Positions 3,725 to 57,895 of a stretch of DNA of 64,000 nt are shown here, piece by piece (the first letter of the stretch is position 1; every line of letters starts with the position of its first letter). Source of the DNA: Thermoplasmata archaeon (GTDB taxonomy: Archaea > Thermoplasmatota > Thermoplasmata > Lutacidiplasmatales > UBA184). A program made the position numbers and the translations under genes. The DNA lies in the NCBI GenBank assembly GCA_030041175.1, contig JASHOK010000006.1:7710-71709 (forward strand), read 5' to 3'. The notes below the pieces were generated by a model. It worked only from the letters and a program-made list of their open reading frames with translations. It ran no database searches and was not told the origin of the DNA.

Positions 3725-3906
3725 GCCGGCGTCTGCTCCACAGACCGGATTCGAATGAGACGACGGGGCACGTGGTGGCAGCCTCCGATCACCGACAACG
3801 CCCACTCCCGAGCCGCGTCGGCGCTGGGTGCGTCGCGAACTTTCGCGAAGGCTTGCCAGCTGTTTCGGCGAGCGTAGAACTCCCCGGAGACCGTCCAGCT
3901 CGGCAT
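3721..3906 (-). CDS. rplX: 50S ribosomal protein LX (L18Ae/eL20 family)
   Basis: 61 aa. WTVSGEFYARRNSWQAFAKVRDAPSADAAREWALSVIGGCHHVPRRLIRIRSVE matches the LX pattern F..G......F.kev.a....A.e...s.iGs.H.v.R..I.I..v.e. Sits immediately upstream of pfdA-ftsY, as in many archaea. Confidence 0.7.
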   Translation of the reverse strand: MPSWTVSGEFYARRNSWQAFAKVRDAPSADAAREWALSVIGGCHHVPRRLIRIRSVEQTPA

Positions 3907-4172
3907 AGCGCCCTGCGGGCGGTCGCGCCACCCGGGCTCGCTACTTTAGCCCTTTGGGTCGGGCGAGGATTCGTCGGGGCTTGCGGGTTGGCTCGTGGTC
4001 TGTTTCATCACTCGCTCGCGGGTCTGGAACCAGCGGGCCTGCCGCTCCTCCAGGCGGAGCGCCGCAGGCGGACTGACGGAGGTCGGGGGCTCCGCTTGAG
4101 CGGGGTCGGACGAGATCGGTGGTTCCGGAGAGCCAGCGTCAAGCGTACGCTGGCCCCCTCCAGCTTCGGGGC

Positions 4173-5060
4173 TCAACCGGCGAGCTCTTCGATCCGCCGC
4201 CATTGCTGGGCTGTCTCCTCCTCAGTAAATGCCAGGGTAGGAGAGAACAGAACGGTTTCCCCCCACGTCCTCCGGGCCGCGGGGAAGTCGTCCACGAGCA
4301 ACGGTAGGACGACGCCGTCGGCGTGGGTCTGCCCCACCAGTTCGCGCACCACGGCCTCGGGTTCCGTCCCTGCGCTGCCCGTCACCCGTGCCTTCGGGTC
4401 AAAGCGAAGAAGCGTCCCGCCTACGAACAGCTCTCCGACGCCCGCCGTCACGAATGCCACGCGGCATCCACGCTTCATCATGAGGTAGGCCCCTACTGCC
4501 CCGCGGAGGCCGTCGACCAACGCGACCACCCGCCCGGCCACCCCGAGGGGGAACCCCCCGGGGCCGTCCATCCGGCTCGAGTAGAGATACGTCCGGGGGC
4601 CGCGGACCTCTACGTCGAGCTCGACGGCGGGATCGTCGAGGTCGACCGACAGTCCCCGCTCGGGCCACGCGGAGAGGATCCGCCCGCCCAGGTCCCTGGC
4701 GAGCTCCTGGCTGGTGAAGGAGTGGCTGCCGGTTCGGCGGGCCCGGATCGCAAACGAACTTCCGGGCCGCAGGAGGGAGTCAGCCCACACGAGTACCTTG
4801 GTCCGGATCCCGTCGAGGTCCGTCGGAATCTCCTCCACCGGGCTCACCGAGGTGACACCGAAGACGCGGCGTACCAACCGCATCGACTCGGGCTCGTCGG
4901 ACTCCACGTAGAGGTGCCCGTGGTCGGCCCGAAGCCGGCAGGTCCGTCCCGCGGCGAGAAACTGGGTCAGGATGTTCCGTTGCAGCGTCCGCTCGAACTC
5001 CCGCCGCACGGGGGAAGATTTGAGCGCGAGCTCGCCGTAGCGCACGAGGAAGGTAGCCAT
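4173..5060 (-). CDS. THUMP-domain ThiI-like protein with degenerate PP-loop
   Basis: N-terminus MATFLVRYGELALKS..VRREFE and the THUMP region resemble ThiI. The ThiI-like stretch GAVGAYLMMKRGC is present, but the preceding SGGxDS PP-loop reads VDGLRG. Only 295 aa. Confidence 0.7.
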   Translation of the reverse strand: MATFLVRYGELALKSSPVRREFERTLQRNILTQFLAAGRTCRLRADHGHLYVESDEPESMRLVRRVFGVTSVSPVEEIPTDLDGIRTKVLVWADSLLRPGSSFAIRARRTGSHSFTSQELARDLGGRILSAWPERGLSVDLDDPAVELDVEVRGPRTYLYSSRMDGPGGFPLGVAGRVVALVDGLRGAVGAYLMMKRGCRVAFVTAGVGELFVGGTLLRFDPKARVTGSAGTEPEAVVRELVGQTHADGVVLPLLVDDFPAARRTWGETVLFSPTLAFTEEETAQQWRRIEELAG

Positions 5061-5110
5061 CGGAAGAACGGTTAAGACGGACGCGGCTCTTCAGCGTTCG
5101 GGGCAGCTCC

Positions 5111-6922
5111 GTGGGCAGTGGCGAACGAGTGTCGTCGTCTGCTCTCTGGGACCCGTGGGCACCCGCTCGATCCCACATTACGACGGAACTCTCGCGTCGG
5201 CTCGCGGCGCGTGGCTTCCCGGAATCCGTCGAAGCGCTCGACCGGCAGCTGGAGGACGCGCCGGCCGGCGTCGCCGATTTCGGATACGCTACCCACCGCG
5301 CCGCTAAGTCGGCCGGTGTGCCGGCGGATCGGCTCGCCGCCGAGATGGCCGAGGGGTTTCCGCTGAGCGGGGGTCTCGCCCGGGTGACGTCCGACGGCGC
5401 GTACGTGAACTTTCACGCCGACACGCCGCGGTTGGTCCAGAGCACCCTCGAACTCGTCTTCGCCCGAGGCCCCGAGTATGGGCGCGGCCCCTCCCGAACC
5501 GAAAAGGCGTGTGTAGAGCACACGAGTGCGAACCCGACCGGTCCCTTCCACGTGGGCCGGGTGCGAAACGGGATCATCGGAGACACCCTGGCCCGAGTCC
5601 TCCGGGCCGCCGGCTTCCCCGTGACGACCGAGTACTACATCGACGACATGGGCCGGCAATCGGCGATGATCACCTGGATCTGGTCGATCCCCGTGGATCA
5701 ATGGCCGCCCTCCGTCCGGGAGGGCGCTCAGCCCCCGGCGGGGGCCTCGTCCACGACGGAGAAGGCGGACCGGTGGTACGGACGTCCGTACCCGTTCGTC
5801 AGTGAGCTGCTCAAGAAGGACCCGGCCGCGGCGCAGGGCGTCGCCGACCTCGTCCGGGACCTCGAATCCGGGCATCCGCCGGCCCGACATCGGGAGCTCG
5901 CCCAAGCCGTGCTGGATGGTATGCTCGCGTCGCTGGGACGGGTCGGGATCCGCTTCGACTCGTTTGTCTGGGAGTCGAGCCTCATCCAGGATGGCTCGGT
6001 CGCTCGGGTCATCGAACGGCTCCGAAAGGCACCGCATGCCGTCATCGAGGACAACGGCGCCCTCGTGCTCGACGCGCGCGAGTACGGCTTGCCGAAGGAG
6101 ACGGCCAAGATCGTGGTCACTCGCGGGGACGGGACCTCCCTATATCCGACCCGGGACGTGGCGTATCATCTCCAGAAATTTTCTCGATTTGCCCGGGTCA
6201 TCGATGTATTGGGGCAGGACCACCAGTTGCATGCCCGGACTCTGGCCGCCATGCTCGCCGAGATCGGTGAGACGCAGGTGCCGGAGTTCGTCATCTACCA
6301 GGACATCACGGTCCCGGAGGGCGGCCGGATGTCGACGCGCAAGGGCCGGGCCGTCTATCTGGACGACCTGCTGGACGAGGCAGTAGAACGTGCGAAGTCC
6401 GAGGTGCTGAAGCGACGGGAGGACCTCCCCGCGGAACAGGTGGCGGAGATCGCCGAGCACGTCGGCGCCGGAGCCGTGCGGTACCACATCCTGCGGGTGG
6501 CTCCTGACAAGCCCGTCAAGTTCCGATGGGAAGAAGCGCTCTCGTTCGAGGGACGCAGCGGCCCGTTCGTACAGTACGCGTATGCGAGGGCGGCCAGCAT
6601 CCTTCGGAAGGCCGGCCTGACCGGTCCCCCCGTAGGGTTCAACGCCGACGCGATCGCGGGATCCGAGGAGACGTCGCTGGTCCGCGTACTCGCCCGACTT
6701 CCCGGCACCGTGCAGTACGCGGCTCGGACGGCCCACGTACATACGCTCGCGACCTACGCCCACGAAGTGGCCGAGTCGTTCAATCGGTTCTATCAGAGCA
6801 CGCCGGTGCTGCGAGCGGACGAACCCGTCCGGACGGCTCGGCTCGCGCTGGTGGCGGCCGCCCGCCAGACGATAGGCAACGTACTCGACTACGTCGGCCT
6901 CGAACGTCTCGAACGCATGTGA
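5111..6922 (+). CDS. argS: arginine--tRNA ligase
   Basis: Class I motifs HTSANPTGPFHVGRVRN (HIGH) and MSTRKG (KMSK-like). DALR-type C-terminus ends in M, as is typical for ArgS. Confidence 0.9.
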   Translation: MGSGERVSSSALWDPWAPARSHITTELSRRLAARGFPESVEALDRQLEDAPAGVADFGYATHRAAKSAGVPADRLAAEMAEGFPLSGGLARVTSDGAYVNFHADTPRLVQSTLELVFARGPEYGRGPSRTEKACVEHTSANPTGPFHVGRVRNGIIGDTLARVLRAAGFPVTTEYYIDDMGRQSAMITWIWSIPVDQWPPSVREGAQPPAGASSTTEKADRWYGRPYPFVSELLKKDPAAAQGVADLVRDLESGHPPARHRELAQAVLDGMLASLGRVGIRFDSFVWESSLIQDGSVARVIERLRKAPHAVIEDNGALVLDAREYGLPKETAKIVVTRGDGTSLYPTRDVAYHLQKFSRFARVIDVLGQDHQLHARTLAAMLAEIGETQVPEFVIYQDITVPEGGRMSTRKGRAVYLDDLLDEAVERAKSEVLKRREDLPAEQVAEIAEHVGAGAVRYHILRVAPDKPVKFRWEEALSFEGRSGPFVQYAYARAASILRKAGLTGPPVGFNADAIAGSEETSLVRVLARLPGTVQYAARTAHVHTLATYAHEVAESFNRFYQSTPVLRADEPVRTARLALVAAARQTIGNVLDYVGLERLERM

Positions 6923-15972: not shown

Positions 15973-16899
15973 ATGTCCCGCGTCCGTGTCGAGGACCTCG
16001 GGTCCAACCGTTTCCAGATCGACCTGGACTTTCGCGACGTGGAGGGCTTGATCGCGAGCTATCTCCTACCGGACGAGGAGGGCTGGACCCTCGTGGAAAC
16101 CGGTCCGGCCTCCTGCAGAGAACGCCTAGCACAGGGTCTGGCGGCCGCGGGCATCGAGACGGCAGACGTCCGGCGGGTATTCGTGACGCATATTCACCTC
16201 GACCACGCGGGTGGCCTTGGGGCCGTGGCCGATCTACTGCCGCGGGCCCGGCTCTACGTCCACCGGGAAGGACTGGAGCACATGGTCGACCCGACTCGCC
16301 TGATTGCAAGCGCGCGTCGCGCCTGGGGTGCGGCGGCCGACCCGTTGTGGGGACCCATTCTGCCCGTGCGGCCCGACCGACTCGTCCCGTTGGTCGGTGG
16401 CGAAACCTTCGCCCTGCGCGATGGACCCCTCGAGGTACTTCCCACGCCCGGCCACGCCCGGCACCACCTCGCGTTCTTTGACGTCCGAACTCGGTCGATG
16501 TTGACGGGCGACGCGGCCGGGGTCCACCTGGCCGGTACCGGAGCCGTTCGCCCGGCCCTCCCTCCCCCGGATCTGGACTTGGAGGCTCTGCTGGAGAGCG
16601 TGGAGCGAATGCTAGAGAAACGGCCGGATCGTCTACTCTATACCCACTTCGGTCCTCGAGAGGGTGGTTCGGCCGCCCTCGCGGAGTATCCCCAGCTGGT
16701 GCTGCGCTGGAAGGAGGTGGCGCTCCGCGCAGCGCGGGAAGACCCTACGGTCGACCACGTTGCCTCCGAGCTCGCCAAAGATGCGCGGGATCGGATCGGT
16801 GGCAGCAACGACGATCCCCGACCCGACCTGATCTCTGGGACAGCGATGGCTGCGCAAGGCCTGCTCCGGTACTTCCGTACGCGAGGTCTGATCTCCTGA
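15973..16899 (+). CDS. MBL-fold metallo-hydrolase
   Basis: THIHLDHAGG (HxHxDH) plus downstream TPGHARHH. Confidence 0.8.
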   Translation: MSRVRVEDLGSNRFQIDLDFRDVEGLIASYLLPDEEGWTLVETGPASCRERLAQGLAAAGIETADVRRVFVTHIHLDHAGGLGAVADLLPRARLYVHREGLEHMVDPTRLIASARRAWGAAADPLWGPILPVRPDRLVPLVGGETFALRDGPLEVLPTPGHARHHLAFFDVRTRSMLTGDAAGVHLAGTGAVRPALPPPDLDLEALLESVERMLEKRPDRLLYTHFGPREGGSAALAEYPQLVLRWKEVALRAAREDPTVDHVASELAKDARDRIGGSNDDPRPDLISGTAMAAQGLLRYFRTRGLIS

Positions 16900-16988
16900 C
16901 GACGCGCGAAGATTTCGTCGGTCCTGAGCTGAGGCCGGCGCTCGCCCTCTTCGGCGCCAGGGTCGTCTACGCCTTCAACTGGTACAAC

Positions 16989-18140
16989 GTGGGGGCACTT
17001 CTTCCCCTCATTGGGGCCACTTTCGCCGCCAATACCGCCCAGCTCAACGTGGTCCTGGCAGCGTTCCTCGTCGGGGTGGGAATCTTTCAGGTTCCCGCGG
17101 GATTTCTCGACCTCCGCTGGGGGTCCCGGCGGACGGCGCTTGCGGGTTTGGTGCTGATGGGCGCAGCCTCTCTCGCCTCCGCGTTCTCCGGGACGCTCGT
17201 CGAACTGATCCTGCTCCGTTTCTTCGCGGGGGTCGGAGCAGCGTTCTTCTTCTCACCGGCGCTCAGCCTTGTCGCGTCCTACTTCCCGCCCGGCCGACGG
17301 GGGCCGATCATCGGTCTCTACAACGGAGGATTCAGTCTCGGTGGCGCCATCGGCGTCACTGCCGGTGCGGCGATCGGGCTCCGGTTTGGATGGCCGTTCG
17401 CGCTCGGCGTCGGTGGCGTGGGCCTCCTGATCATGGCGGTGTACAATTGGTATGCGTTACCGGAAGGCCCCGTCCGGGCGGTCGCGGCCGACGTGGCTCA
17501 GCGATGGACGGTGGCGAAGTCGATCTTCCGGTCCCGGTCGATCTGGATGCTCTCCCTCGGGTTTGCCGGCTTCTGGGCGGCGGTTTATGTGGTCGCCCAA
17601 GACTATGTCAAGTTCGCCCATGTCGTCCACGCGGCCTGGGGAATCCAGACTGCGGCGGACGTCGCCACGATTTTCATTCTCGCCTCGTTCCCGGGGGGTC
17701 TCCTTGGCGGCTGGATCGCCGAACGCGGCTCGGACCGGCGAGCCCTGCTAGCGCTCTTCGGCGTCGCCGTTGGACTCTTGATCGCGGCGATTCCGTACCT
17801 CGGACTGTACGCGACGGCAGGGGTCTTTGTGGTCGCGGGCCTGTTTGACGGAGTTGTGTTTGCGATCCTCTATCTCGTGCCCTCCTACCTGCCGGAGAGC
17901 CACGGCGCCGGCCTCGCCCTGGCTATCGCAGTGATCAACTCGATTCAGGTGCTCCTCGGCAGCATCATCGCCGTCGTCTTTGGGGTCGTGGCGTTCGACT
18001 CCGGGTTCACCGTGGCCTGGATCTTCGCGGGGCTGCTCACGATCGGGCTGGTCCCACTCGTACTCTTCGTGGTGCCGAATCGGGCCGGTCCCGCGGTCGC
18101 CGCGCCGGCGAGGGCGGTGGACGCTCCTACGTCGAAGTGA
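16989..18140 (+). CDS. MFS transporter (true start probably upstream of 16989)
   Basis: About 12 TM segments with an MFS loop DLRWGSRRT. In-frame upstream sequence RPALALFGARVVYAFNWYN looks like TM1 but has no ATG/GTG/TTG. Confidence 0.75.
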   Translation: MGALLPLIGATFAANTAQLNVVLAAFLVGVGIFQVPAGFLDLRWGSRRTALAGLVLMGAASLASAFSGTLVELILLRFFAGVGAAFFFSPALSLVASYFPPGRRGPIIGLYNGGFSLGGAIGVTAGAAIGLRFGWPFALGVGGVGLLIMAVYNWYALPEGPVRAVAADVAQRWTVAKSIFRSRSIWMLSLGFAGFWAAVYVVAQDYVKFAHVVHAAWGIQTAADVATIFILASFPGGLLGGWIAERGSDRRALLALFGVAVGLLIAAIPYLGLYATAGVFVVAGLFDGVVFAILYLVPSYLPESHGAGLALAIAVINSIQVLLGSIIAVVFGVVAFDSGFTVAWIFAGLLTIGLVPLVLFVVPNRAGPAVAAPARAVDAPTSK

Positions 18141-19572: not shown

Positions 19573-19646
19573 CCGAGCTCTCCGATGTCCTCCGGCCTCG
19601 TGAACGTGGGGACCTTTTAGTATCGTTCCCCGCTGCGCTTCCTCAT

Positions 19647-19719
19647 AGCCCCGTGGTGTAGTGGCCAAGCATGCTGGCCTTTGGAGCCGGCGACAGCGGT
19701 TCGAATCCGCTCGGGGCTA
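19647..19719 (+). tRNA. tRNA-Gln (anticodon UUG)
   Basis: 73 nt. Acceptor AGCCCCG/CGGGGCT with discriminator A, anticodon stem CTGGC/GCCGG, loop CTTTGGA (U33, TTG), T arm AGCGG-TTCGAAT-CCGCT. No encoded CCA and no intron. Confidence 0.8.
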
Positions 19720-19791
19720 TCGCGGGGAAATGACGGACCTTACGACCGGACCACTGGGCGTCCGACGGCTACCCGCTGGGAGCGCTAACGC

Positions 19792-21932: not shown

Positions 21933-22001
21933 AGCCCCACCCGTTCTACGGTCCGCCATGCGGCGGGAACTGGCGGGGAGCGAGTTAGCCCACCCCCCAG
22001 A

Positions 22002-22631
22002 GTGGACCGTAACGTCCCTCGCCCGGGGATGTCCGTGACGTTCGTCTTCCCCGCATGGGACGTCTACGTTGGCGCCGCCCTGATCGTCGTCATATTCGCC
22101 CTCGCCGGCGAGGGGCTGCTGCGCCTGGTCGACGGCATCGGTCGCCGCGCGGGCTTGCGCCAGACGACGCTGCTTTGGAGTCGGGACTCGATCCGCATCA
22201 TCTGGATCATCCTGGCAGTTGTCGGGGTTGCGTACTACACGGGCCTCGCGTCGATTCTGACCGTACTTGCGGTGTCGACCGTCGGAGGCCTGGTCGTCTC
22301 GCTGGCCCTTCAGGCGACGCTCACCAATGTGATTGCCGGTCTGTTTCTCCTGCAGGACGGGACGCTCCGTCTCGGGGACGACATCACGTACTCGTCAATT
22401 TCGGGCCGGGTCATTCGCATCACACTTCGAACCTCCTGGATCATCACCGACAAGGGCGTCATCGCGGCCGTCGCGAACTCCCAGCTGATGAACGGCCCGT
22501 TGATCAATCGGACCGCTACGTCCCGGCTCGTCGTGCGCTACCACATTCCGCCGGAACTTGTTTCGCCCGTGCCTGGCGCGGGGCAGGCGCCCGCGACCCC
22601 CCCGCCGGCCGGGCCCATACCGAAGCCCTAG
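22002..22631 (+). CDS. small-conductance mechanosensitive channel (MscS-like)
   Basis: Three TM helices, then LTNVIAGLFLLQDGTLRLGDDI...ISGRVIRITLRTSWIITDKGVIAAVANSQL, the MscS pore helix plus beta-domain pattern. Confidence 0.65.
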   Translation: MDRNVPRPGMSVTFVFPAWDVYVGAALIVVIFALAGEGLLRLVDGIGRRAGLRQTTLLWSRDSIRIIWIILAVVGVAYYTGLASILTVLAVSTVGGLVVSLALQATLTNVIAGLFLLQDGTLRLGDDITYSSISGRVIRITLRTSWIITDKGVIAAVANSQLMNGPLINRTATSRLVVRYHIPPELVSPVPGAGQAPATPPPAGPIPKP

Positions 22632-22694
22632 AGCCACCGGCGCCATCGACCCCGCGGTGCCACTATCGCGGGACCTAAGTACCTGGGAACCGTT

Positions 22695-23453
22695 GTGTCG
22701 CGGATGTCGCCCCCCGCTGCCGGCGGATCCCCGTCTGCGCGGCCGTCGCTGAGTCAGGACGATAGCACCGGACTGGGCCGACTCGGGACTGGGGCCGGGG
22801 TTGGGCTCGCGGGCGGGATCGTCGGGGTCGTCTTGCCAATCGTCTTTCTCTGGCTCGCGGCACACAATCCGGGTGGCTTCTTCACCTACGACACGACGCT
22901 CGTGGATACGACCGGTTTCTTCGTACTCGCGGGGGCCATTCTGCTCTTGATTTCGCTCTTCATGTACCGGCGCGGTTTTGCAGCTCTGCGCAAGGCCGAC
23001 GGTCGATTTACCGCGGCGTCGATTCTCTGCATCATAGGCTCGATTGGCTTCTTGCTGCTCTTGATCGCAGCTGCGGTCCTGGTCGGGACCAGTAGCTCGC
23101 TAATCTCCTGTCTGCACGAGTCGCCCAGTCACGCACTTTCCTGCGTGGAGTCGGGTCAGCCCTTCGGAGCATACACGGCGCTGATCGGGTTCTGGCTGGG
23201 CTGGCTGGGCGGGCTCGGTATCGTGCTGGGGCTGGCGATCGCCGGCGGCCGGTTCCACGTCGGTGCTGTGTCGGGTGGCGCGGCGCTCTACGCGCTCCTC
23301 CTGGTGGTCCTGATCGGACCCTTCCTGAATCTCCTAGTCTCGATTCCGGGCGTGGATTACCTGCTCCTCATCGCGCCGGTCTTCATCGTCCTGGCCCCGG
23401 GTCTCGTGCTGGGAGGAACCCGGCGGGCACTGCTGAGCCGTCCGCCCAGCTAG
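22695..23453 (+). CDS. polytopic membrane protein, function unknown (possibly DUF973-like)
   Basis: About 6 TM segments and a MYRRGFAALRK loop. Family call is from memory only. Confidence 0.5.
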   Translation: MSRMSPPAAGGSPSARPSLSQDDSTGLGRLGTGAGVGLAGGIVGVVLPIVFLWLAAHNPGGFFTYDTTLVDTTGFFVLAGAILLLISLFMYRRGFAALRKADGRFTAASILCIIGSIGFLLLLIAAAVLVGTSSSLISCLHESPSHALSCVESGQPFGAYTALIGFWLGWLGGLGIVLGLAIAGGRFHVGAVSGGAALYALLLVVLIGPFLNLLVSIPGVDYLLLIAPVFIVLAPGLVLGGTRRALLSRPPS

Positions 23454-23479
23454 GCGCTCGGGCGGACCGGTCCGCCAAG

Positions 23480-23812
23480 CTATCCCGTCGAGCCGCGGAA
23501 GGCCCGGAGTCCCCCCTGGGCGTTGTACGCAAACTCACAGCGATAGATCGCCGGCCCGTGTCGGGCCTCGGCATTCCGACCCCGCCGGTCCCCGGCGATC
23601 GTCAATCGGTCAACCGTGGGCCAACCGGTCTCGACCTTGATCCGGGCGACGAGGTTCCGGAACTGAACCGCGCACACTTCGCAGCAGAAGAAGAGCCGCT
23701 GGCCCTCCACTTCCTCCCAGAGGTCCCCCCAGCTCGAGTCGCAGATGGCGCAGGCGGTGTAGTTAACCTTCAAACTGGGTCCCCCGTTCGAGCCGGGCAA
23801 CCAGGTAATCAT
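23480..23812 (-). CDS. small Cys-rich putative metal-binding protein (Ta0938-like?)
   Basis: CAIC...CCEVC cysteine pattern. An alternative TTG start at 23773 would reduce the overlap with the upstream gene to a few nt. Confidence 0.5.
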   Translation of the reverse strand: MITWLPGSNGGPSLKVNYTACAICDSSWGDLWEEVEGQRLFFCCEVCAVQFRNLVARIKVETGWPTVDRLTIAGDRRGRNAEARHGPAIYRCEFAYNAQGGLRAFRGSTG

Positions 23813-24659
23813 CGAACAGGTCTGCCGAGCGAAGGAAGGTGGCCTGAACGGCCTCTCGCTGGCCCGGGCCGGTCGAAAACTGCTCGACCAACTCCAGCGC
23901 CTCGTCCGAATGACCCACGTCGGCCTCGTAGCCTTCGCGGAGGAAGGCTTGGGTCTCGTGCGTTACTTCCGTGCCCTGGAGGATCCGCGGATCAAAGTAT
24001 CGGAGAGTGGCCCCGTGTTGGACGAGCTCCCGGTTCGCGATCAGCTCGAGACTGTGCATCGCCGCCATCGCCTCCACCCAGGGCTCCTCGCTCGCGATCC
24101 GGTTCCATGCTCGGATTCCCACCGCGGTGGACGGTAGCGGCGGAGTGGCCAGGATTTGTGCCCGGTCGAGTCCCAGGCTCTCGCCCATCCGGAGCAGGAG
24201 CTCGTAGTGCGACGGAGCCGGCGTGCCGAAACCCCCGAACTCGGTGTTCAGGTTGTCGAGTTCGTACCGGGCTACCGCCGGTTCGTCGGTGCGGGCCATG
24301 ATGAACGCGCACGAACGAACCCACTGCCGGAGGAAATGCTGGTGCTCGACCACGTAGCCCAGAAGCGTCGCGCGCGAGGGGTGTTGCAGAGCCACCGGGA
24401 ACGGGTGAGGGGTTGGGCCGTAGAACTTCTGGATAAACCGGTCCTTAATCCAGACAGACACCGGCTTCCCCTCCAGATCGAAAAAGGCCCGGAGCCGGCC
24501 CTCGAGTTCCCGAGCGGGCATTTTCTGTCGGGAAATGTTCTGGTTGAGCCAGCGGACGTGGCCGGAATCGCTCGCGTCAGCCTGCGCAACGAGGTGCGCC
24601 GCCAAGGCGGAGTAATCTCCCAGTCCAAATCGCTCGAGGCACGCGGGACACTTTGTCAT
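23763..24659 (-). CDS. N-terminal zinc-finger fused to a heme-oxygenase-like / iron-containing redox enzyme domain
   Basis: MTKCPACLERF...AAHL...GH (C-x2-C...H...H) is followed by an all-helical domain (YVVEHQHFLRQW, HYELLLRMGESLG, MAAMHSLELIANRE, EGYEADVGH). This resembles the TenA/PqqC/HO-like four-helix-bundle family. Confidence 0.6.
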   Translation of the reverse strand: MTKCPACLERFGLGDYSALAAHLVAQADASDSGHVRWLNQNISRQKMPARELEGRLRAFFDLEGKPVSVWIKDRFIQKFYGPTPHPFPVALQHPSRATLLGYVVEHQHFLRQWVRSCAFIMARTDEPAVARYELDNLNTEFGGFGTPAPSHYELLLRMGESLGLDRAQILATPPLPSTAVGIRAWNRIASEEPWVEAMAAMHSLELIANRELVQHGATLRYFDPRILQGTEVTHETQAFLREGYEADVGHSDEALELVEQFSTGPGQREAVQATFLRSADLFDDYLVARLERGTQFEG

Positions 24660-24675: not shown

Positions 24676-25047
24676 TCAGAGCGGAAACTCGGCCGGGAGC
24701 CGAGACCTCAGACGCCGGTACTCCGGGTCATTCCCGAATTCGCGACGCATTCGCTCGAGCGTCGCCACAACGTCGGCGGGCGTCCGCCGACGGGCGTCGG
24801 CGACCATCCCAACGGTTCCCTCGAAGTCCGCGTGGCACGCCTCGAAGCAGTTGCCCATCCCCGTGAGGAGTTCCCGTTCCTTCGGGTCCACGGTGGGGAA
24901 CACGGTCGCCCCCTCAAATCGGCGTCGGCGGGGGACCACGGACCGCTTTCGGGCCGGGAACCATTCATTAGCCGTCGAGATGTAAGGCGGACGGAGACTC
25001 AAGATGCCGCCGCGCACGCGAGGCCCGAGGGGTCGGTCCGTCGCCAA
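24676..25047 (-). CDS. hypothetical protein (start uncertain: 25047, GTG 24939 or ATG 24861)
   Basis: Same strand and 17 nt upstream of the HO-like gene. Contains GNCFEACH. The longest form overlaps the citrate synthase start by 44 nt. Confidence 0.35.
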   Translation of the reverse strand: MATDRPLGPRVRGGILSLRPPYISTANEWFPARKRSVVPRRRRFEGATVFPTVDPKERELLTGMGNCFEACHADFEGTVGMVADARRRTPADVVATLERMRREFGNDPEYRRLRSRLPAEFPL

Positions 25048-26344
25048 GCCGAAGAAGGAAAGCGCACTCTCCGTCCTGGACCAACGGACCGGGCGATCCT
25101 ACACCCTTCCGGTCCAGCAGGGCTCCATCCACGCGCCGGATCTCCGACAGATCCGGCGTTCCGAGACGGATTTTGGACTGCTGAGCTATGACCCGTCGTT
25201 CCAGAACACGGCGGCCTGCAAGAGCAGCATCACGTACATCGACGGCGGCGCGGGAATTCTCCGTTACCGCGGGTACCCGATTGACGAACTGGCCGGCCAC
25301 CGCAGTTACCTCGAAGTCGCGTACCTGCTGGTATACGGCCATCTGCCGAACAAGAACGAGCTCGGCGACTGGCTGCACAACATCACCTACCATACCATGT
25401 TGCACGAGAACGTCAAGAAATTCATGGACGGCTTCCACCACGATGCGCATCCGATGGGGATGCTGGTCGGAACCCTGGCCGGCCTCTCGACGTTCTATCC
25501 GGAGGCCAAGCAGATCCACGACGAGCCGGTGCGGCAGCGCCAGATCCACCGGCTGATCGCCAAGATGCCGACGATTGCGGCGTTCGCGTTCCGGCACTCC
25601 ATCGGAATGGCGTACATCTACCCCAGCAACGACCTCGGCTATGCGGAGAACCTCCTCACGATGATGCATCGCCCGTCCTGGACGACGGGCTACACACCGG
25701 ATCCCGTCCTATCCAAGGTTCTCGACATCCTGTTCGTGCTGCACGCCGACCACGAACAGAACTGCAGCACCCTCGCGATGCGAACGGTCGGGAGCTCGCA
25801 CGCCGATCCCTACACCTGCGCCGCTGCCGCGGCCGCCGCCCTGTACGGACCCCTTCACGGAGGAGCGAACGAGCAAGTCGTGGCGATGCTGCGGGAGGTC
25901 GGGAGCCGCGACCGGATCCCGCGGCTCATCCGCCAGGTCAAGGCCGGAAAGAGGCTCCTGATGGGATTCGGTCACCGGATCTACAAGAACCGGGACCCGC
26001 GTGCCGAGATTATCAAAAAGGTGGCTCCCGAGGTCTTCCAGGTCACGGGCCGCAACCCCTTGATCGACATCGCCCTTGAACTCGAAAAAGTGGCCGAGTC
26101 GGACGACTATTTCATCAAGCGGCACCTCTACCCGAACGTCGACTTTTACTCCGGGATCATCTACCAGTCCATGGGGTTCCCGGTCGACATGTTCCCCGTG
26201 CTGTTCGCCATCCCACGGATGTCCGGGTGGCTCGCGCAATGGCAGGAGATGCTCCTCGACCCCGACCAGAAGATCAGCCGGCCGCGCCAGCTCTATACCG
26301 GCTCCGGGCTCCGCCACGTACCGAGGTCCGGAACCCCGGACTGA
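25004..26344 (+). CDS. gltA: citrate synthase
   Basis: ILRYRGYPIDELA, LHADHEQNCST, GPLHGGANE and MGFGHRIYKNRDPR are signature motifs. Confidence 0.9.
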   Translation: MPPRTRGPRGRSVAKPKKESALSVLDQRTGRSYTLPVQQGSIHAPDLRQIRRSETDFGLLSYDPSFQNTAACKSSITYIDGGAGILRYRGYPIDELAGHRSYLEVAYLLVYGHLPNKNELGDWLHNITYHTMLHENVKKFMDGFHHDAHPMGMLVGTLAGLSTFYPEAKQIHDEPVRQRQIHRLIAKMPTIAAFAFRHSIGMAYIYPSNDLGYAENLLTMMHRPSWTTGYTPDPVLSKVLDILFVLHADHEQNCSTLAMRTVGSSHADPYTCAAAAAAALYGPLHGGANEQVVAMLREVGSRDRIPRLIRQVKAGKRLLMGFGHRIYKNRDPRAEIIKKVAPEVFQVTGRNPLIDIALELEKVAESDDYFIKRHLYPNVDFYSGIIYQSMGFPVDMFPVLFAIPRMSGWLAQWQEMLLDPDQKISRPRQLYTGSGLRHVPRSGTPD

Positions 26345-26353
26345 GTCGGCCGC

Positions 26354-26641
26354 TCAGCCCTGTACCGTGATGGTGCCGGACCGGCCCATCGAGACCTGCA
26401 GCTTCCCGCGGTAGTCCTTGACCCATCCGTCGGTGATCTTGATCTTCTGGCCCACGCTGTACTTCTTCGTATCGTCGCCCCACAGGGTGAGCGTGATCGT
26501 GCCGGTCTCGTCCTTCAGTGTCGCGTCGGCCACCTTGGAAGCCCCGCGCGACGTGGTGACGTCGCGTACGTCGGAGATCGCGGTGATAGTGGCTTCGATC
26601 GTCGCATTCGAATTCGCGCGGAGAGACGAGATTCCGACCAT
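26354..26641 (-). CDS. OB-fold nucleic-acid-binding protein (single OB domain)
   Basis: 95 aa. A beta-rich pattern (ATLKDETGTITLTLWGD...GQKIKITDGWVKDYRGKLQV) is typical of tRNA_anti/SSB-like OB folds. Confidence 0.6.
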   Translation of the reverse strand: MVGISSLRANSNATIEATITAISDVRDVTTSRGASKVADATLKDETGTITLTLWGDDTKKYSVGQKIKITDGWVKDYRGKLQVSMGRSGTITVQG

Positions 26642-27529: not shown

Positions 27530-28456
27530 ATGGATCTCAGTACCCTAGTTCTCCCGACCGCGCTTCTCGGCACCGCCGCCGCGGGCGCTTTCATCGGTTG
27601 GCGCGTCTACCAGCGTTACTACCGGGCAGTCCCTCCCAATCGGGCGCTCGTCGTTTACGGCGGAAGCCGTCCTCTCGCCGCCTCCTCGAGTGGGCCGCAG
27701 GTCGACGTTCGTTCGCCCCGGATCATCGTTGGGGGAGGCATCTTCCTTCCGCCATGGCGGCACGGTTCGGACTCGCTCTCGCTGAGTCCGCTCGACGTCG
27801 AGGCCCGCGTGGTGTTGGCCGCCAACCCGGCGGACCCAGCGGACGTGCCGTGGGAGGCGAGGCTCGCGGTCCAGGTGAAGATTCCGACAGAACCCAACAT
27901 GTTGCGGACCGCGGCCGAGAATCTACTCGGACGGAGCGAACCGGAGCTTCGGGCATTGGTGATCCGTATCGTAGAGGCAGTTGCGCCTGCGGTTGTTCTC
28001 CGGGAGCTGTCGGCCGACCCCAAGACCGCGTGGGATCGGCTGGCCGCAGAAGTCCAGGCCGCCGTCGCGCCGGAGCTAGTATCGCTCGGTTTCGAGGTTC
28101 GGACCCTGTCGGTGGTCCAGCTGCGTCGGGTCGCGGTGGGTGACAGGACCGAACCCGGTCTTCCGGGGGTATCTGCGCTCTCGCGGGACCTTCTGTGGGC
28201 TTCGGGCGACCTCGGGGTGCGCCTCCGGTCCGCGGAGCTGCGGCTGGACCGGACCGAGCGCAGTCTCGGATTGCTTGGAGCCGAGGTGATGCGTCTCGGT
28301 CGGGATGGCTCACAGTTCCCGATTCTTCCGACGTTGCAGCCTTACGATTCCACGGGGGACGAGCCACCGGTTCGGGCCCTCTCTCGAGGCTCGAAGGGAG
28401 CCGAGGGGAGAGGGTCGACCGGCGCCACCCGACCTCTGTTGGATACAGAAGGGTGA
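27530..28456 (+). CDS. membrane-anchored SPFH (flotillin/band-7-like) protein
   Basis: N-terminal TM helix LVLPTALLGTAAAGAFIGW, then YYRAVPPNRALVVYGG..PRIIVGGGIFLPPW...LAVQVKIPTEPNMLRTAAENLLGRSEPELRALVIRIVEA...LVSLGFEVRTLSVVQL follows the flotillin-type SPFH pattern. The C-terminal region is unassigned. Confidence 0.7.
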   Translation: MDLSTLVLPTALLGTAAAGAFIGWRVYQRYYRAVPPNRALVVYGGSRPLAASSSGPQVDVRSPRIIVGGGIFLPPWRHGSDSLSLSPLDVEARVVLAANPADPADVPWEARLAVQVKIPTEPNMLRTAAENLLGRSEPELRALVIRIVEAVAPAVVLRELSADPKTAWDRLAAEVQAAVAPELVSLGFEVRTLSVVQLRRVAVGDRTEPGLPGVSALSRDLLWASGDLGVRLRSAELRLDRTERSLGLLGAEVMRLGRDGSQFPILPTLQPYDSTGDEPPVRALSRGSKGAEGRGSTGATRPLLDTEG

Positions 28457-28466
28457 GAAACAAACC

Positions 28467-29486
28467 ATGTGCCCAGCAGCAATTTTGGGAGATCGAGCAT
28501 GCGGAAAGACGACTTTCCTGGGACTACTCTATGCGGCCCAGGTCAAGTACGGTACCCGGGTCGCTGACTCGTTCCGGTTCCACGCACCGTTGCAGTCGCT
28601 TCGCCTGATGAGCCAGGTCTACGAGGGAATGAAGGACGCGCGCTTCCCCGGAGCGACGCTCAAAGACGAGATGACGGAGATCGGCTTCGTCTTCGGGTAC
28701 CGGAAGGCGTTGTCCGGTCGACTGCCCACGGTGCTCAAGGAGAAGAACTGGGTGAACCCCTTCGCCAAGCTCCAGTTCGCTGCCTACGATGTCTCGGGCG
28801 AAGATGTCCAGGAGTTCATTGAGTCCGGAGTAGCGGCCAGCCCCATCATTCAGCAGCTGTTGAAGAGTCACATCGTCGTCGTGCTGGTCGACTGCAGCAA
28901 GATGACCACCGAGATCGATTCCCCACTCTTCCGCCAGATGCTGAAGTACGACAGTGAGGTGGCCTCGCTCCTGGTCTCGCTCCAGACCTACAAGCGCCAG
29001 GAATTCACCCGGATGAAGGCTCAGGGGCTCAATGTCGGCAACCCCGTGATCTATCCCGCGATGGTCCTGGCCAAGTTCGACTCGGTCCGCGACGAGGTGC
29101 TGGTGAAGCTTGGGCTCCACCGCGGCGTGCCGGCGGGAGACCAGAAGCGCAAGCGCAAGGAGTACGCCGAGGCGCTGCTGCGCGTCTTCATGCCACAGAC
29201 GCTCTCACAGATCCGAGGAGGCAAGGTGGCCGGGGTCAACTTCGACCAGGCGGCCTACTTCTTCAGCTGGGTCAAGACCGAAACGGCGGAGGCCGGCATG
29301 CAGCCCGTGGGCGCTCCCCGGATTGTCCGGAAGGGCTTTTCGGCGGACGGCGGAGCGGAGCCGGACTTCTCGTATGACGACTACGTCGCGTTCATTGAGC
29401 ACTTCCGCGATGTGGCCAACAAGGTCCCCGACGAGATCGTGGAGCAGACGACCCTCCAGGCCGCACCTGCACCGGCCCCTGCCTGA
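28467..29486 (+). CDS. P-loop GTPase-like protein (unclassified family)
   Basis: Start at ATG 28467, with GGTGA 10 nt upstream. G1 GDRACGKT is at residues 8-15, followed by a G3-like YDVSGED, strand VVVLVDCS and a G4-like LAKFDS. There is an insert of about 90 aa between G1 and G3. Confidence 0.65.
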   Translation: MCPAAILGDRACGKTTFLGLLYAAQVKYGTRVADSFRFHAPLQSLRLMSQVYEGMKDARFPGATLKDEMTEIGFVFGYRKALSGRLPTVLKEKNWVNPFAKLQFAAYDVSGEDVQEFIESGVAASPIIQQLLKSHIVVVLVDCSKMTTEIDSPLFRQMLKYDSEVASLLVSLQTYKRQEFTRMKAQGLNVGNPVIYPAMVLAKFDSVRDEVLVKLGLHRGVPAGDQKRKRKEYAEALLRVFMPQTLSQIRGGKVAGVNFDQAAYFFSWVKTETAEAGMQPVGAPRIVRKGFSADGGAEPDFSYDDYVAFIEHFRDVANKVPDEIVEQTTLQAAPAPAPA

Positions 29487-29498
29487 GGACCGCCACCG

Positions 29499-30341
29499 AT
29501 GCCCGACGCCCAGATGGAGGCTCCGGTGCTCGAGACTCCAGCCGAAGTGCTGCAGCTCGAGCACTGGATCTACGGAGCGAGCCCGGAGAAAGGATACGGC
29601 ACGAAGGCCGAGTCGGCCGGCTTAAACGGTCCGCTGTACCAGCGGTATCTCGGAAACCACTTCACTCCGGTCCGGGTGGAAAAGACCGCCAGCGGGTCGA
29701 CGGTGATCGACGCGCGGATGATCCACCCGGCCCCGGCGAACGACGAGGTGCTGCTCTCCGTCCTGGGACGGGGCGCCGCGGACGAGTACAACCGCCCGAC
29801 GATTGCCAACCACACGGTGGTGATTCCGGGAGGCTTCCTCCGTTCGGGTCGGCTGACCCTCACGCAGGCAGAAGCCGCGATCCTGGACTTCGACCGACGC
29901 CTTCCAAAGGCGAGTGGCCGCGTCGAGCCGCTCACGGTGCGTCTGTCCTCCGACACGGTCCCTCGGGAAAGCCCAGGATCAGGCATCCGGCGGTACATCA
30001 CTCGGGCCGCGGTCGATACACTGGTCAGCCGGTTCCTCGCAGATTCGCATGGGCGGACGCTCCTGCTCTGTCGGGGGAGCACGCATCAATATCGGAACGA
30101 GTTGCTCTACAAGCTCGTGGAGCTCCTCCACGCGGGGGGAGAGATCCCGCTGTTCACCGCCATCAGCGACGCGCCCACCCTGAGCGCCATGAACCACTTC
30201 CGTCTCGCGATCTCCTCTCGCGGGGTCCGGGCGGACGGGACCTGGACGCTCCTGGACGCTAGCATCGACCGGCCGACTCTCCAGCCCGTTCGGGGACGAG
30301 CGCCAGTCTACTCTCGAGTCGCGGAAGCGTTCGGGACTTAG
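29499..30341 (+). CDS. hypothetical soluble protein (280 aa) between the two GTPase paralogues
   Basis: GAGGA 9 nt upstream of the ATG. Balanced composition, no TM segment, no motif I can name. Confidence 0.6.
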   Translation: MPDAQMEAPVLETPAEVLQLEHWIYGASPEKGYGTKAESAGLNGPLYQRYLGNHFTPVRVEKTASGSTVIDARMIHPAPANDEVLLSVLGRGAADEYNRPTIANHTVVIPGGFLRSGRLTLTQAEAAILDFDRRLPKASGRVEPLTVRLSSDTVPRESPGSGIRRYITRAAVDTLVSRFLADSHGRTLLLCRGSTHQYRNELLYKLVELLHAGGEIPLFTAISDAPTLSAMNHFRLAISSRGVRADGTWTLLDASIDRPTLQPVRGRAPVYSRVAEAFGT

Positions 30342-30406
30342 CCGACCGCACTGAGACTGCCGCGCTGCCAGTCCGCGAACCCGGGCCTGTCCCGCCGAGC
30401 CGTCCG

Positions 30407-31339
30407 ATGGCCTCCGCGCTGGTCCTGGGTGAACGAGGTTGCGGTCTCACGACCTTCGTGGGGCTGCTCTACACGGCGCAGGTCCGCCTCGGGACGGAGC
30501 ATGCCGACGAGTTTCGGTTCCACGCGGACCGGGACTCGATCCTTCGCATGGAGGCCGTCTATGGCGAGCTCGGTGCCGGCCGATTCCCCGCGGCGGATGT
30601 CGACTGGGAGCGGAACCTGCTCTCGTTCGTCTTCGGCTTCCGACGCGGGCATGTGGCTTGGTTCGCCGGTGGCGGAGGCTCCGGCGAACACGGATTCTCC
30701 GCAGTCCGATTTCAGGTAGGCGGAATGCCCGCCGAGGTCGTTTCGGAGCTTCGAGATCATGACGCCGTACTCGACGGAACGACCCTCCGTTTGCTGAAGA
30801 GCCCCATCCAGCTTCCGATCGTCGACGGGGCATGGTTGGTTCCGGACCGCTCCAGTACGGCCGGACTTCCCCTGGCCCGATACGACCAGCACCTTGCGGC
30901 GACCCTGGACCTCCTCCACAAGTTCCTCGCCGCCGACCGGGATCGGCGGGCGCGGCAGATGTTTCCCTTGTTCGTCGTTACTAAGTTCGATCGGATCCGG
31001 CCCGACTCGCTCCGCGCTCTCGAAGCCCCCGAGGGACCTTCGAGTGAGTGGACCCCCGAAGATCGGAAGTCCGTCGGGACCCGGATACTCTCGGGCTATC
31101 TCCCGGCTACTCGGGACTTTCTACTGCGCTCTAGCCATGATGGCGTGCGTATGGCGGAACCGGCGTGGTACTTCAGCGGGGTCAAGACAGAGGAACGCGG
31201 GGACGAGCTCCGGATTCTCCGGCGTCGCATCTCGCCGACCAGCGGATGGGAGCCCGACTATCCGTTCGAGGAATTCAAGGGGCTGCTCACCCATCTCGGC
31301 GAACTCGCCGGGCGGCTTCCGGTCGAAGCCATCGACTAG
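30407..31339 (+). CDS. paralogue of the 28467 GTPase-like gene with degenerate nucleotide-binding motifs (pseudo-GTPase)
   Basis: ALVLGERGCGLTTFVGLLYTAQVRLGTEHADEFRFHA aligns with AAILGDRACGKTTFLGLLYAAQVKYGTRVADSFRFHA (25 of 37 identical by eye). The Walker A Lys is Leu (CTC at 30446..30448) and G3 reads FQVGGMP. VVTKFD is retained. Confidence 0.65.
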   Translation: MASALVLGERGCGLTTFVGLLYTAQVRLGTEHADEFRFHADRDSILRMEAVYGELGAGRFPAADVDWERNLLSFVFGFRRGHVAWFAGGGGSGEHGFSAVRFQVGGMPAEVVSELRDHDAVLDGTTLRLLKSPIQLPIVDGAWLVPDRSSTAGLPLARYDQHLAATLDLLHKFLAADRDRRARQMFPLFVVTKFDRIRPDSLRALEAPEGPSSEWTPEDRKSVGTRILSGYLPATRDFLLRSSHDGVRMAEPAWYFSGVKTEERGDELRILRRRISPTSGWEPDYPFEEFKGLLTHLGELAGRLPVEAID

Positions 31340-33018
31340 CCCGATGGGACCTTCGCAGCCTCCGCCGGTGACGCTCGGTACTTGAACCCGTCCCGATGGC
31401 TACCTTCTCGGACGACTTCCCAGCCGGGAATCCGCCAAACGCCGTCCGGTGGCACTGCCTGAGGATCGCCCTGAGCGAGCTCTCCGAGCTCAGCCTCGAG
31501 GTACTCGTGGTCCGTCGCGACGTCGGGCGCGATCTGGCCTTTCTGAAGCAAGGAGGCCAGAAGCGGAAGCCCTGCTGGCCGGCCCCTCCAACGGACCGCG
31601 AGGAATGCCTTCCGGGCTTCCACGTCCTCGAGCAGCAGCTGGCGTAAGGACGCGTACGGCGGTCGGCTCCGGTAGTCTCGGGGGGGACCGTCCAGGCGAT
31701 GCCGCTCCCGACGCGCTTCCTCGAGCACCCCGCGCCAGGTCGAGGGGCGCACAGACCTGGCCTCCCAGATGGCCGACGGGTCGAGGGGCTCCTCGCTACC
31801 CGAATCGTCGGTCCCTGCGGGACCGCCACCGGCCTCGCCCGGCAGAGCGGACACTCCCTTTACGCCGGGTCGGCGGAGCGACCTGGGGCCCTGGAGCGTG
31901 TACGCGAGAGCTGCCCCTGTGGCCGCGCCGGAAGGCGGGCGGATTTGGAGTTCCTCGCAGTCGGGATATCGGTTCGGATGAAGTACGACGAACGGACCGG
32001 TCTCTGCTGAACTGAACAGCGCCGCGAGGGCGTCGTTGACCGTCGGTACCTGGCGGCGTACAGCCAGCTCACTCAGCTTCACGAGCGGGAGCGGGGCCTC
32101 GGCCTTGCGAGCGTGGGCGGCTAGGTCATCGAGCAGGGCCTGCGCAACTTCCGCCTGAATCTGCTGGGTCGCTGTTCGGGTGACGGCCTGGTCGGCGGGC
32201 CGGGCACGGGTCAAGCCCTGCCGGACCCGATGGCTCAGGCCCCCGTGGCGCCGGGCGTGCTGGTGCAGGCTGCGCAATCGGACGTTGATCCACGGGTGGA
32301 GCCGGCCACCGCTGACCTTCGACTCCGCGAAGATGCCGCCCCACCGATCCGGCGTCTCGGTGTCCCAGGTCGAGCGCCCCGGGCTCTCTCGGTACCACCG
32401 GAGTGCGAATTCTCGCAGGAGGGCGCCCGCGTTGAGCGGGTCGTCGACCTCGCGTTTAACGCGGTCCATCAGGGCCTCGGCCCGGTCTGCCACGAGAGTC
32501 ACCTGATCTGCGTCGCCCAGATCCAGGTGGAGCAGACCAGAGATTGGAACGGTGTTGAGCTCCAGGATATCGAAGCGCTCGGCGGGGTCCAGAGCCAGAA
32601 ACGCCCGAAGCGGGTCCGGGATCAGTGGTCTTCCGACCTCGCGCACCCGGTCCGCGGGTCCCGGAGGGTGGGCCGCACCGCCCGCCGGGTGGCTCGACGG
32701 GGTGTCCGGGCTACCCTCGGAGGCTCGCGAGGCTCCCGCGGCCCCCTCTCCGGGAGTGATCGGGCTCTCGTCAGCGGAGCCACTGGGATGGGCGCCACCC
32801 CGCCGGAGCGTTTCGACGTTGTGCAGCCGGCGATGATGCTCCCGTTCGATGCGAAGCCGCTCCTCGGCCCGGCGACGATCCCTCTCCCGCTGAATGCGGT
32901 CGGCGTCTGTCTCGGCCGGCATACAACACAGGGGTCGCCGACCCCCCGGGAAATTGGGTCGACCGAAGGCATTAATCGTTTCGTCCGGGGCCGGTGGACT
33001 CTGCCCCCACGGTGTCAC
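31336..33018 (-). CDS. hypothetical protein (up to 560 aa; alternative start ATG 32922)
   Basis: Convergent with the pseudo-GTPase gene, with a 4-nt overlap of stops. The N-terminus has an R/E-rich segment ([26 protein letters not shown]) and a P/G/S/A-rich linker. The remainder has mixed composition with no recognisable motif. Confidence 0.5.
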
Positions 33019-57753: not shown

Positions 57754-57895
57754 GGCTCCCGAATCCTCCGATCGACCCCCGGTCCGGGCGGCTCTCGGGG
57801 TTGGGCCACGGTCATTAGGGCTCGGCCCATCACTCCGCCCGTCTTTCGATGACCGGGCTCGACCCCCCCGCGGCTCGTACCACACTCGCTTTCGG

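Follow-up and report, generated by a model that had tools for sequence, protein, structure and literature searches.

The DNA analysed here is a 64,000-nucleotide stretch of contig JASHOK010000006.1 (positions 7,710 to 71,709; hereafter the window) from a Thermoplasmata archaeon. It contains four co-directional genes on the + strand, designated A, B, C and D and separated by spacers of 10, 12 and 65 nt, and a convergent fifth gene, E. The central pair, B and D, are paralogous GTPase genes. By its motifs (invariant G1 Lys, G2 Thr and G3 DxxGE, and a G4 of the KxD type), B is predicted to be the only catalytically competent GTPase of the set, while D is classed operationally as a pseudoGTPase, since it has lost the G1 Lys and the G3 Asp and Gly and is yet under selection. 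B, D and C make up a jointly inherited set to which E usually belongs; in this lineage the set further includes A, a protein combining a transmembrane (TM) helix with an SPFH domain. We read A-B-C-D and the convergent E as one conserved module, a membrane-proximal GTPase switch that would form an archaeal offshoot of the DO-GTPase/GAP1 "GTPase-centric" systems, and we put the probability of this reading at about 0.6. The module would be an uncharacterised archaeal branch of "double-GTPase" systems, which were previously predicted by computer in bacteria only.

The B/D gene pair and its motifs

The two paralogues and their distinguishing motifs are located as follows.

28467..29486, + strand: gene B, 339 amino acids (aa); intact TRAFAC GTPase by motifs, divergent DO-GTPase
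28488..28511, + strand: B G1/Walker A GDRACGKT, residues 8-15; K14 in 77/77 orthologues
28644..28664, + strand: B candidate G2/switch I FPGATLK, with T64; T64 in 78/78 B orthologues
28785..28805, + strand: B G3/Walker B YDVSGED, residues 107-113 (D108-x-x-G111-E112); D108, G111 and E112 in 78/78
29070..29081, + strand: B G4 AKFD, residues 202-205, a variant form of [NT]KxD, the motif for guanine specificity; 76/78 B orthologues have [SAT]K[FY]D
30407..31339, + strand: gene D, 310 aa; pseudo-GTPase paralogue of B
30428..30451, + strand: D degenerate P-loop GERGCGLT, residues 8-15; Leu14 in 35/39 orthologues
30710..30730, + strand: D degenerate G3 FQVGGMP, residues 102-108; replaces YDVSGED
30980..30991, + strand: D retained G4 TKFD, residues 192-195; TKxD in at least 35/39 orthologues

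B and D are true paralogues, as an initial annotation of the locus had proposed. BLASTP aligned the two proteins over their full length with 97 of 326 positions identical (30%, E=2e-43) and 16 gap positions, and the five shared sequence blocks quoted in that annotation were all found in both. Its statement that the N-termini align without gaps held, but its count of 25 identical residues out of 37 was too high by two (23/37). The open reading frame (ORF) of B remains open upstream to an ATG at 28305, overlapping the 3′ end of A (28305-28466); the start was placed at 28467 because all orthologues begin with MCPAAILGD.

The annotated lesions of D were read directly in the sequence. Its Walker A motif is GERGCGLT, in which Leu14 is encoded by CTC at 30446-30448, a codon three substitutions away from both Lys codons (AAA/AAG), and the G3 motif YDVSGED of B is replaced at aligned positions by FQVGGMP. 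A further loss, absent from the initial annotation, affects the candidate switch-I Thr, as T64 of B is aligned with Asp in D. The glycine-rich loop, the Thr-Thr that follows it, the guanine-specificity motif TKxD and an FSG(V/L)KTE block are all retained.

Conservation, selection and the order of motif loss

Homologues of B (158) and D (168) come nearly all from uncultured Thermoplasmata, those of D exclusively from Thermoplasmata metagenomes. A scan of species-representative genomes gave 110 encoding contigs, and 80 loci were kept; all motif counts refer to proteins derived from these loci. The sample for the motif dichotomy comprised 78 B proteins, 39 D proteins and 23 upstream-type, five downstream-type and three divergent-type second copies, and 37 genomes encoding both B and D formed the set for paired comparison. 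Two loci that hold the module were deposited as "bacterium" (L020, DAIDCO010000007.1) and "Deltaproteobacteria bacterium" (L077, JACPFH010000714.1), with B proteins showing 91% and 66% identity to that of the window; these are probably misbinned Thermoplasmata contigs.

The difference at the P-loop extends across orthologue pairs, with K14 in 77 of 77 B proteins and Leu in 35 of 39 D proteins, the others having Q, M, R or S at this position. Leu persists down to approximately 31% pairwise identity. DxxG was never present among the D orthologues: the position aligned with D108 is Gly in 37 of 39, that aligned with G111 is T, A or V (Gly and Ala, respectively, in D of the window), and the position aligned with T64 is Asp or Glu in 38 of 39.

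Ratios of nonsynonymous to synonymous substitutions (dN/dS) were estimated by the Nei-Gojobori method against the nearest genomes; the ratios are approximate, as dS was near or above 1 for most pairs, and two D comparisons yielded no estimate. The lowest value was obtained for B (~0.03), followed by C (0.05-0.10) and D (0.05-0.12), with A (0.15-0.25) and E (0.15-0.22) above them. At a dN/dS of 0.05-0.12, D is under strong purifying selection and is therefore no decaying gene; its ORF is full-length and intact (306-316 aa) in dozens of independent metagenome-assembled genomes (MAGs). The alternative that D is a decaying pseudogene, or that the Lys-to-Leu change is a recent lineage-specific lesion or an assembly error, has nothing in its favour apart from the lost motifs themselves; it is refuted by the intact frame, the selection on D and the recurrence of Leu, the distance of the codon from Lys also speaks against it, and we assign it practically no probability.

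D evolves much faster than B, the mean pairwise identity within the same 37 genomes being 0.53 for D and 0.93 for B. The conservation of B (95-97% identity) exceeds even that of the adjacent citrate synthase (82-90%). The dS of B (0.6-1.0) is consistently below that of C, D and E (1.1 to >2) in the same genome pairs, as would be expected if its codon usage were strongly constrained or its expression high. Several of the long-read "MFD...bin" assemblies have B, D, E or A split into two adjacent frames (L042, 8001-9021; L045, 9939-10926 and 10884-12456; E and A in L008 and L023); these cases are more likely to be indel errors than real pseudogenes.

The loci fall into four architectures: (1) A-B-C-D with convergent E, as in the window; (2) E on the opposite strand, then A, B and C with a downstream second copy; (3) a second copy transcribed divergently, E lying upstream of B-C; and (4) X-B-C with convergent E. 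In all four the second copy lacks DxxG, and the architectures differ in the residue at the P-loop Lys position, which is Leu in the window type, Val or Thr in the downstream type and Arg in the divergent type; the second copy of the X-B-C type keeps Lys (GDRxSGKT in 21 of 23). A second paralogue was found in nearly every locus with sufficient flanking sequence, in L074 by means of a hidden Markov model (HMM). A profile search of 1.84 billion representative proteins returned only 221 clusters, split between proteins with GK[ST] and DxxGE and proteins without G3, and across the G3-less clade the position of the Lys may be occupied by L, Q, M, R, S, V, T or G.

In a neighbour-joining tree, built without support values, the B-type proteins formed one clade and the G3-less copies another, within which the Lys-retaining forms are basal to or beside the Lys-lost subclade. 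The simplest reading is a single ancient duplication and early loss of G2 and G3 in one copy, with loss of the P-loop Lys in several lineages later, since Lys would have become dispensable once G2 and G3 were gone. The initial annotation had held that D orthologues with a normal GKT motif would point to lineage-specific decay. Within the A-B-C-D type Leu prevails, as described above, but the co-orthologues of the sister X-B-C lineage do carry GKT, in proteins that are already G3-dead. Because these co-orthologues keep GKT without G3, the inactivation appears to be ancient and stepwise, G3 presumably having been lost before the P-loop Lys. A remote locus of 42% GC content (L085) contains, in the same order, an intact GTPase, a C-like gene and a G3-degenerate GTPase in which GKS is kept and G3 reads YDASSV. 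Its C-like domain (3489-5327) is fused to an N-terminal P-loop ATPase of the HerA/DUF87 type, in a protein of 612 aa.

The retained motifs could also be taken to mean that D is an independent sensor, binding a nucleotide or another ligand in a non-canonical pocket and acting on C or E alone. The GxxGxG-L-T-T, TKxD and FSG(V/L)KTE elements of D are under selection, and the GKT of the deeper co-orthologues suggests that nucleotide binding outlived hydrolysis. However, phosphate and Mg2+ are canonically bound by the Lys of the P-loop, the Asp of Walker B and the Thr of switch I, and in D these are lost jointly; moreover, the range of residues tolerated at the Lys position argues against a specific new chemistry. 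We consider an independent sensor unlikely and prefer to view D as the inactive half of a switch shared with B.

Four MAGs (REEB18, clean282, WH2.bin11 and clean3262) contain two complete divergent modules each (L037/L050, L038/L051, L039/L047 and L044/L048), with B proteins at approximately 87% and 67% identity to that of the window and with V/T versus R in the P-loops of the second copies. A fifth, YP1.bin27, has two loci (L015/L041), both of the window type, with B at 95% and 84%.

Family of protein B and predicted fold of protein C

DO-GTPases are a computationally defined family of TRAFAC GTPases with a conserved Glu in Walker B (Kaur et al. 2020, PMC7159879). The resulting DxxGE hallmark is found in B (D108-V-S-G111-E112 in 78 of 78) and is missing from D. 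Protein B of the window scored 22.7 bits against Pfam DO-GTPase2 (E=8.7e-5; cutoff 27) and 17.3 bits against DO-GTPase1. Precomputed matches to PF19993 and PF19975 exist for many B orthologues, and remote members of the same HMM-defined family score above the cutoff (P0383, 30.5 bits; P0423, 33.9 bits; P0487, 34.7/34.2 bits). On these profile scores, B would be a divergent relative of the DO-GTPases and not a clean member.

The AlphaFold model of B (predicted local distance difference test, pLDDT, 88; predicted template modelling score, pTM, 0.88) shows a Ras-like core with several additions. Between G1 and G3 these are a strand (36-39) and a helix (42-56) following helix 1, and a helix (88-96) in the beta2-beta3 hairpin; further on there are a helix 3 of 33 residues, a helical insertion behind G4 (209-250), and a C-terminal hairpin with two helices. 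K14 and D108 are separated by approximately 94 residues, compared with approximately 41 at the corresponding place in Ras. The initial annotation had seen here an insert of about 90 residues resembling in position that of G-alpha proteins; in the model, the excess amounts to only ~50 residues, contributed by two short insertions, and a G-alpha-like insert domain was rejected on the basis of the model and the lack of a specific G-alpha match in Foldseek. Membership in the Rag-like GTPases was likewise rejected, as the model of B ends in the hairpin and two helices without a roadblock domain and no Rag match appeared in Pfam or Foldseek. Foldseek searches of B against the PDB gave weak matches, all to GTPases (YcjX, atlastin, eIF5B, Ski7, G-alpha, GBP1 and EF-Tu; TM-score ~0.25-0.32), and no close solved structure. 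Single-sequence and profile searches of the PDB with B and C found no relatives.

The gene between the two paralogues encodes the putative partner protein.

29499..30341, + strand: gene C, 280 aa; predicted longin-like N-domain (~17-134) and alpha/beta C-domain

C retains 37-40 invariant residues down to ~40% identity, including HW, TPxR and RGVRAD. In its AlphaFold model (pLDDT 80, pTM 0.83) the N-domain has the topology beta-beta-alpha-beta-beta-beta-alpha-alpha. The top Foldseek match, over the full length, was TagF (9t0n; E=2.3e-6, probability 1.00, TM-score 0.47), and the next were the SMCR8 chain of the C9orf72 complex, the Lst4 longin domain, FLCN-FNIP2, a Loki roadblock-longin protein and SEAC/GATOR1. 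The Lst4 longin match had a probability of 0.99, but its TM-score was 0.23-0.25 and its E-value 1.7e-3. The model thus points to a longin/TagF-like fold. We do not assign C to the TagF family itself: the Pfam matches of C and its orthologues include no TagF, no PDB sequence match was obtained, and the likeness is one of fold only. To our knowledge, T6SS genes (those for type VI secretion) are not expected in archaea.

No Pfam family matched C of the window. Among 28 C orthologues, two gave sub-threshold matches to Pfam GAP1-N2 (E=0.011); in one C orthologue the alignment covers positions 16-137 of the 139-position profile (E=0.08; score 13.4 bits, cutoff 24), and the aligned region corresponds to the longin-like domain of C. 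Pfam scans of C and E, orthologues included, revealed no GAP1-M or GAP1-C match. In one locus (L084) a fragment of a C-like gene follows a bona fide Pfam DO-GTPase. C is most likely the GAP1-N-type partner of this system, judging from these profile matches and gene positions. Two longer database proteins, P0075 and P0091, came into question as natural B-C fusions, but they resemble chimeras with truncations or frameshifts and were not used.

Longin domains of eukaryotic GTPase-activating proteins (GAPs) are marked by a "GP motif" before strand 2 (PMC12290439). C has not kept this motif: the corresponding loop has the sequence GASPEKGY, Pro29 is replaced by His, Arg, Gln or Glu in orthologues, and only G32-Y33 is invariant there. 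Seven arginines of C are invariant (R59, R99, R186, R192, R199, R241 and R244), none of which could be placed in a catalytic pocket. Because the GP motif is not conserved, we treat a GAP activity of C as hypothetical only.

The proposed module and its relation to known systems

The two outer genes of the module are the following.

27530..28456, + strand: gene A, 308 aa; N-terminal TM helix and divergent SPFH/Band-7 (flotillin-like) domain; stops 10 nt 5′ of B
31336..33018, - strand: gene E, at most 560 aa; convergent with D

Protein A matched NCBIfam FloT with E=2.8e-8, far under the curated cutoff, and Pfam Band_7 was matched by 10 of 16 A orthologues (best E=3.1e-7). Gene A was recorded as confined to loci of the A-B-C-D type, and the survey of architectures also places it in the type with E on the opposite strand followed by A, B and C. 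Protein E consists of an Arg/Glu-rich N-terminal helix, a low-complexity linker rich in Pro, Ala and Gly, and a conserved C-terminal region of ~400 aa; its true start is probably an internal Met. E is linked to B and C in 30 of 34 other loci of at least 15 kb. Its homologues in L047, L050 and L051 carry long hydrophobic insertions that look TM-like by eye, and these, along with the TM helix and Band_7 domain of A, would link the module to the membrane. E had no match in Pfam, NCBIfam, PADLOC, PHROG or the PDB (single-sequence and profile searches), its conserved region has no detectable relatives, and a Pfam scan of 25 E orthologues gave zero matches. The stop codons of D and E overlap at 31336-31339, leaving no intergenic space; orthologous loci show an equal overlap or a gap no longer than some tens of nt.

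With A-E as queries, NCBIfam, PADLOC and PHROGs returned nothing except the weak FloT match of A, and thus no defence-system or phage family. Family searches of the five proteins also found no FNIII domain, no GASH domain (the third component of the N2 and N1 types) and no effector domain. The GC content of the module equals that of its surroundings (64-69% in the window, otherwise uniform). Immediately upstream of the module lie a gene that we take by eye to encode citrate synthase (25004-26344, + strand) and one for a presumed OB-fold/SSB-like protein of 95 aa (26354-26641, - strand); both (25004-26641) are syntenic only in the approximately five closest genomes. Elsewhere in the window there are a lone tRNA-Gln(TTG) gene (19646-19721) and strongly negative AT skews (-0.17 to -0.23) at 16001-18000, 22001-24000 and 56001-62000.

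These data bear on the possibility that the locus is a biological-conflict system, antiviral or causing abortive infection, in which B and D would do the sensing as a switch and the effector would be E or some unlinked protein. Such a role has been predicted for bacterial DO-GTPase/GAP1 neighbourhoods, to which the module is related through B and probably through C; several MAGs carry two modules (WH2.bin11, clean3262, REEB18 and clean282), and the flanks are not conserved beyond close relatives. On the other hand, the module has no variable effector domain, FNIII-repeat or GASH component and no PADLOC or PHROG match, B has a dN/dS of ~0.03 and is more conserved than citrate synthase, and a five-gene content that is constant in most loci, with the GC content of the surroundings, is atypical of arms-race loci. 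We judge a conflict role improbable. A cellular role, as a membrane or assembly checkpoint, is favoured over mobile defence because of the constant gene content, the high conservation and low dN/dS, the unremarkable GC content and the absence of defence matches and variable effectors.

Under the proposed membrane-proximal switch, B and D would pair as a pseudo-heterodimer whose ancestor was a DO-GTPase homodimer, so that only one nucleotide site per dimer cycles. D would serve as its fixed interface or allosteric half and, since the glycine-rich loop, Thr-Thr and TKxD are retained, may still hold a guanine nucleotide without turnover. C would bind the B-D pair through its longin-like domain and either stimulate hydrolysis, with R59 (invariant and located on a flexible loop) and R91/R99 as candidate arginine fingers, or relay the nucleotide state to E, and protein A would anchor the assembly at the membrane. 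An obligate B-D heterodimer, as suggested in the initial annotation, would fit the near-invariable co-occurrence of the two genes and the published prediction for DO-GTPase pairs. D could instead be a decoy or adaptor that mimics a GTPase surface and titrates or scaffolds C without dimerizing with B. Competitive scaffolding is common among pseudo-enzymes, and the B-C-D or X-B-C order keeps C beside both paralogues; however, the DO-GTPase literature favours GTPase dimers in contact with GAP1, and a decoy function seems to us very unlikely.

Several points weigh against the reading of the locus as a DO-GTPase/GAP1-type switch. B lies under the Pfam DO-GTPase cutoff and D has no Pfam match at all, while all GAP1-N2 matches of C are sub-threshold (E=0.011-0.08). 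The alignment behind the model of C was shallow (at least 71% identity), and residues 54-64 of the model, which include the candidate finger R59, have pLDDT <50. TagF, which has two domains, works by sequestering other proteins through direct protein-protein contacts, and no GTPase partner of it is known, so a GAP activity of C is speculative. Loci of a distant branch (L081-L083) hold only a B-like GTPase gene and an overlapping C-like gene, with no second GTPase or E detected within 6 kb; because some relatives thus consist of B and C alone, the pseudo-GTPase is not universally required. No function could be assigned to E, and the flanking genes are kept only among the approximately five closest genomes, so the cassette may be mobile.

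If the proposed switch is correct, the locus represents a minimal, effector-free version of such systems, in which a GTPase among the most constrained genes of its neighbourhood is accompanied by a "locked" paralogue and a small partner. It makes testable whether DO-GTPases work as dimers, what role GAP1 plays, and whether a pseudo-GTPase half-site turns a symmetric switch into an asymmetric one, and the lineages provide a natural mutational series, from GKT without G3 through R/S/T to Leu. Conservation this strong may also point to a core cellular function, so far unrecognised, in the control of membranes or assembly in a widespread group of uncultured Thermoplasmata.

DO-GTPase/GAP1 systems (Pfam PF19975, PF19993 and PF20013) were described by Kaur, Burroughs, Iyer and Aravind (eLife 2020, PMC7159879); 38% of them contain two paralogous GTPase genes, whose products are predicted dimers, with GAP1 encoded downstream. 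The Thermoplasmata module resembles them in its DxxGE TRAFAC GTPase, the paralogous pair B and D, the partner gene C directly downstream, the membrane-proximal theme and the presence of up to several modules per genome. In contrast to the described systems, its GTPases have no N-terminal zinc ribbons or TM segments, C (280 aa) lacks the effector fusions described for GAP1, and components of the FNIII-repeat, GASH, tubulin, HSP70 and kinase kinds are all missing. In place of variable effectors, the module shows a constant gene content under very strong purifying selection, and the linked partners are the SPFH protein A and protein E. A second copy systematically devoid of G2 and G3, here also of the P-loop Lys, is not mentioned in the available parts of PMC7159879. 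In open-access PMC and bioRxiv texts, DO-GTPase/GAP1 systems appeared as computational predictions only, without biochemistry or structure, and within the searchable literature the family is covered only by the paper of 2020 that predicted it and, in passing, by a survey of PSP systems. As far as these sources could be consulted, they do not mention that one paralogue is systematically inactivated, that the partner has a TagF/longin-like fold, or that there is an effector-free, highly constrained archaeal version with SPFH and E proteins.

PseudoGTPases such as CENP-M, the pG domains of p190RhoGAP and Bms1/Tsr1 have a scaffolding or allosteric role beside an active relative. D is comparable to them in that the G-domain fold was kept under selection after loss of G1 and G3 residues. 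It differs in having no homology to them, in lying next to its active relative in a prokaryotic operon, and in the stepwise loss across lineages, presumably of G3 and then of the P-loop Lys. MglA is a Ras-like small GTPase and MglB a roadblock homodimer; in this and other small-GTPase/roadblock-longin pairs of prokaryotes, a GTPase is likewise encoded beside a small alpha/beta regulator of the roadblock/longin class, but the sequence family is different and there is no paralogous pseudo-GTPase.

TagF (9t0n, 2qnu), an accessory protein of type VI secretion, shares with C an alpha+beta N-domain and an alpha/beta C-domain, whereas the two proteins have no detectable sequence similarity and TagF is bacterial, T6SS-linked and a binder of Fha and Hcp. 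The longin GAP complexes for Rag and Arf (FLCN-FNIP, GATOR1 Nprl2/3, C9orf72-SMCR8 and Lst4-Lst7) resemble the module in the N-domain fold of C, in targeting paralogous GTPase heterodimers and in acting on a membrane scaffold. However, the matches of C to them are weak (E=1e-3 to 1e-1, TM-score 0.2-0.25), the GP motif is not conserved in C, and B and D lie outside the Rag/Arf family and have no roadblock C-terminal domains; in Rag heterodimers, both subunits bind nucleotide. A broader proposal, which we hold to be doubtful, is that the GAP1 partner of DO-GTPase systems constitutes, with bacterial TagF, a prokaryotic longin/DENN-like GTPase regulator, and that the Thermoplasmata module is a housekeeping machine made of a heterodimeric GTPase, a longin regulator and a membrane scaffold. 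If this were true, the module would be organised like the eukaryotic Rag-FLCN/GATOR1 or Arf-C9orf72/SMCR8 systems, outside the Asgard archaea and with a different GTPase family, and the arrangement in which a longin protein reads a live G domain paired with a locked one would have arisen, or been invented in parallel, deep in the prokaryotes.

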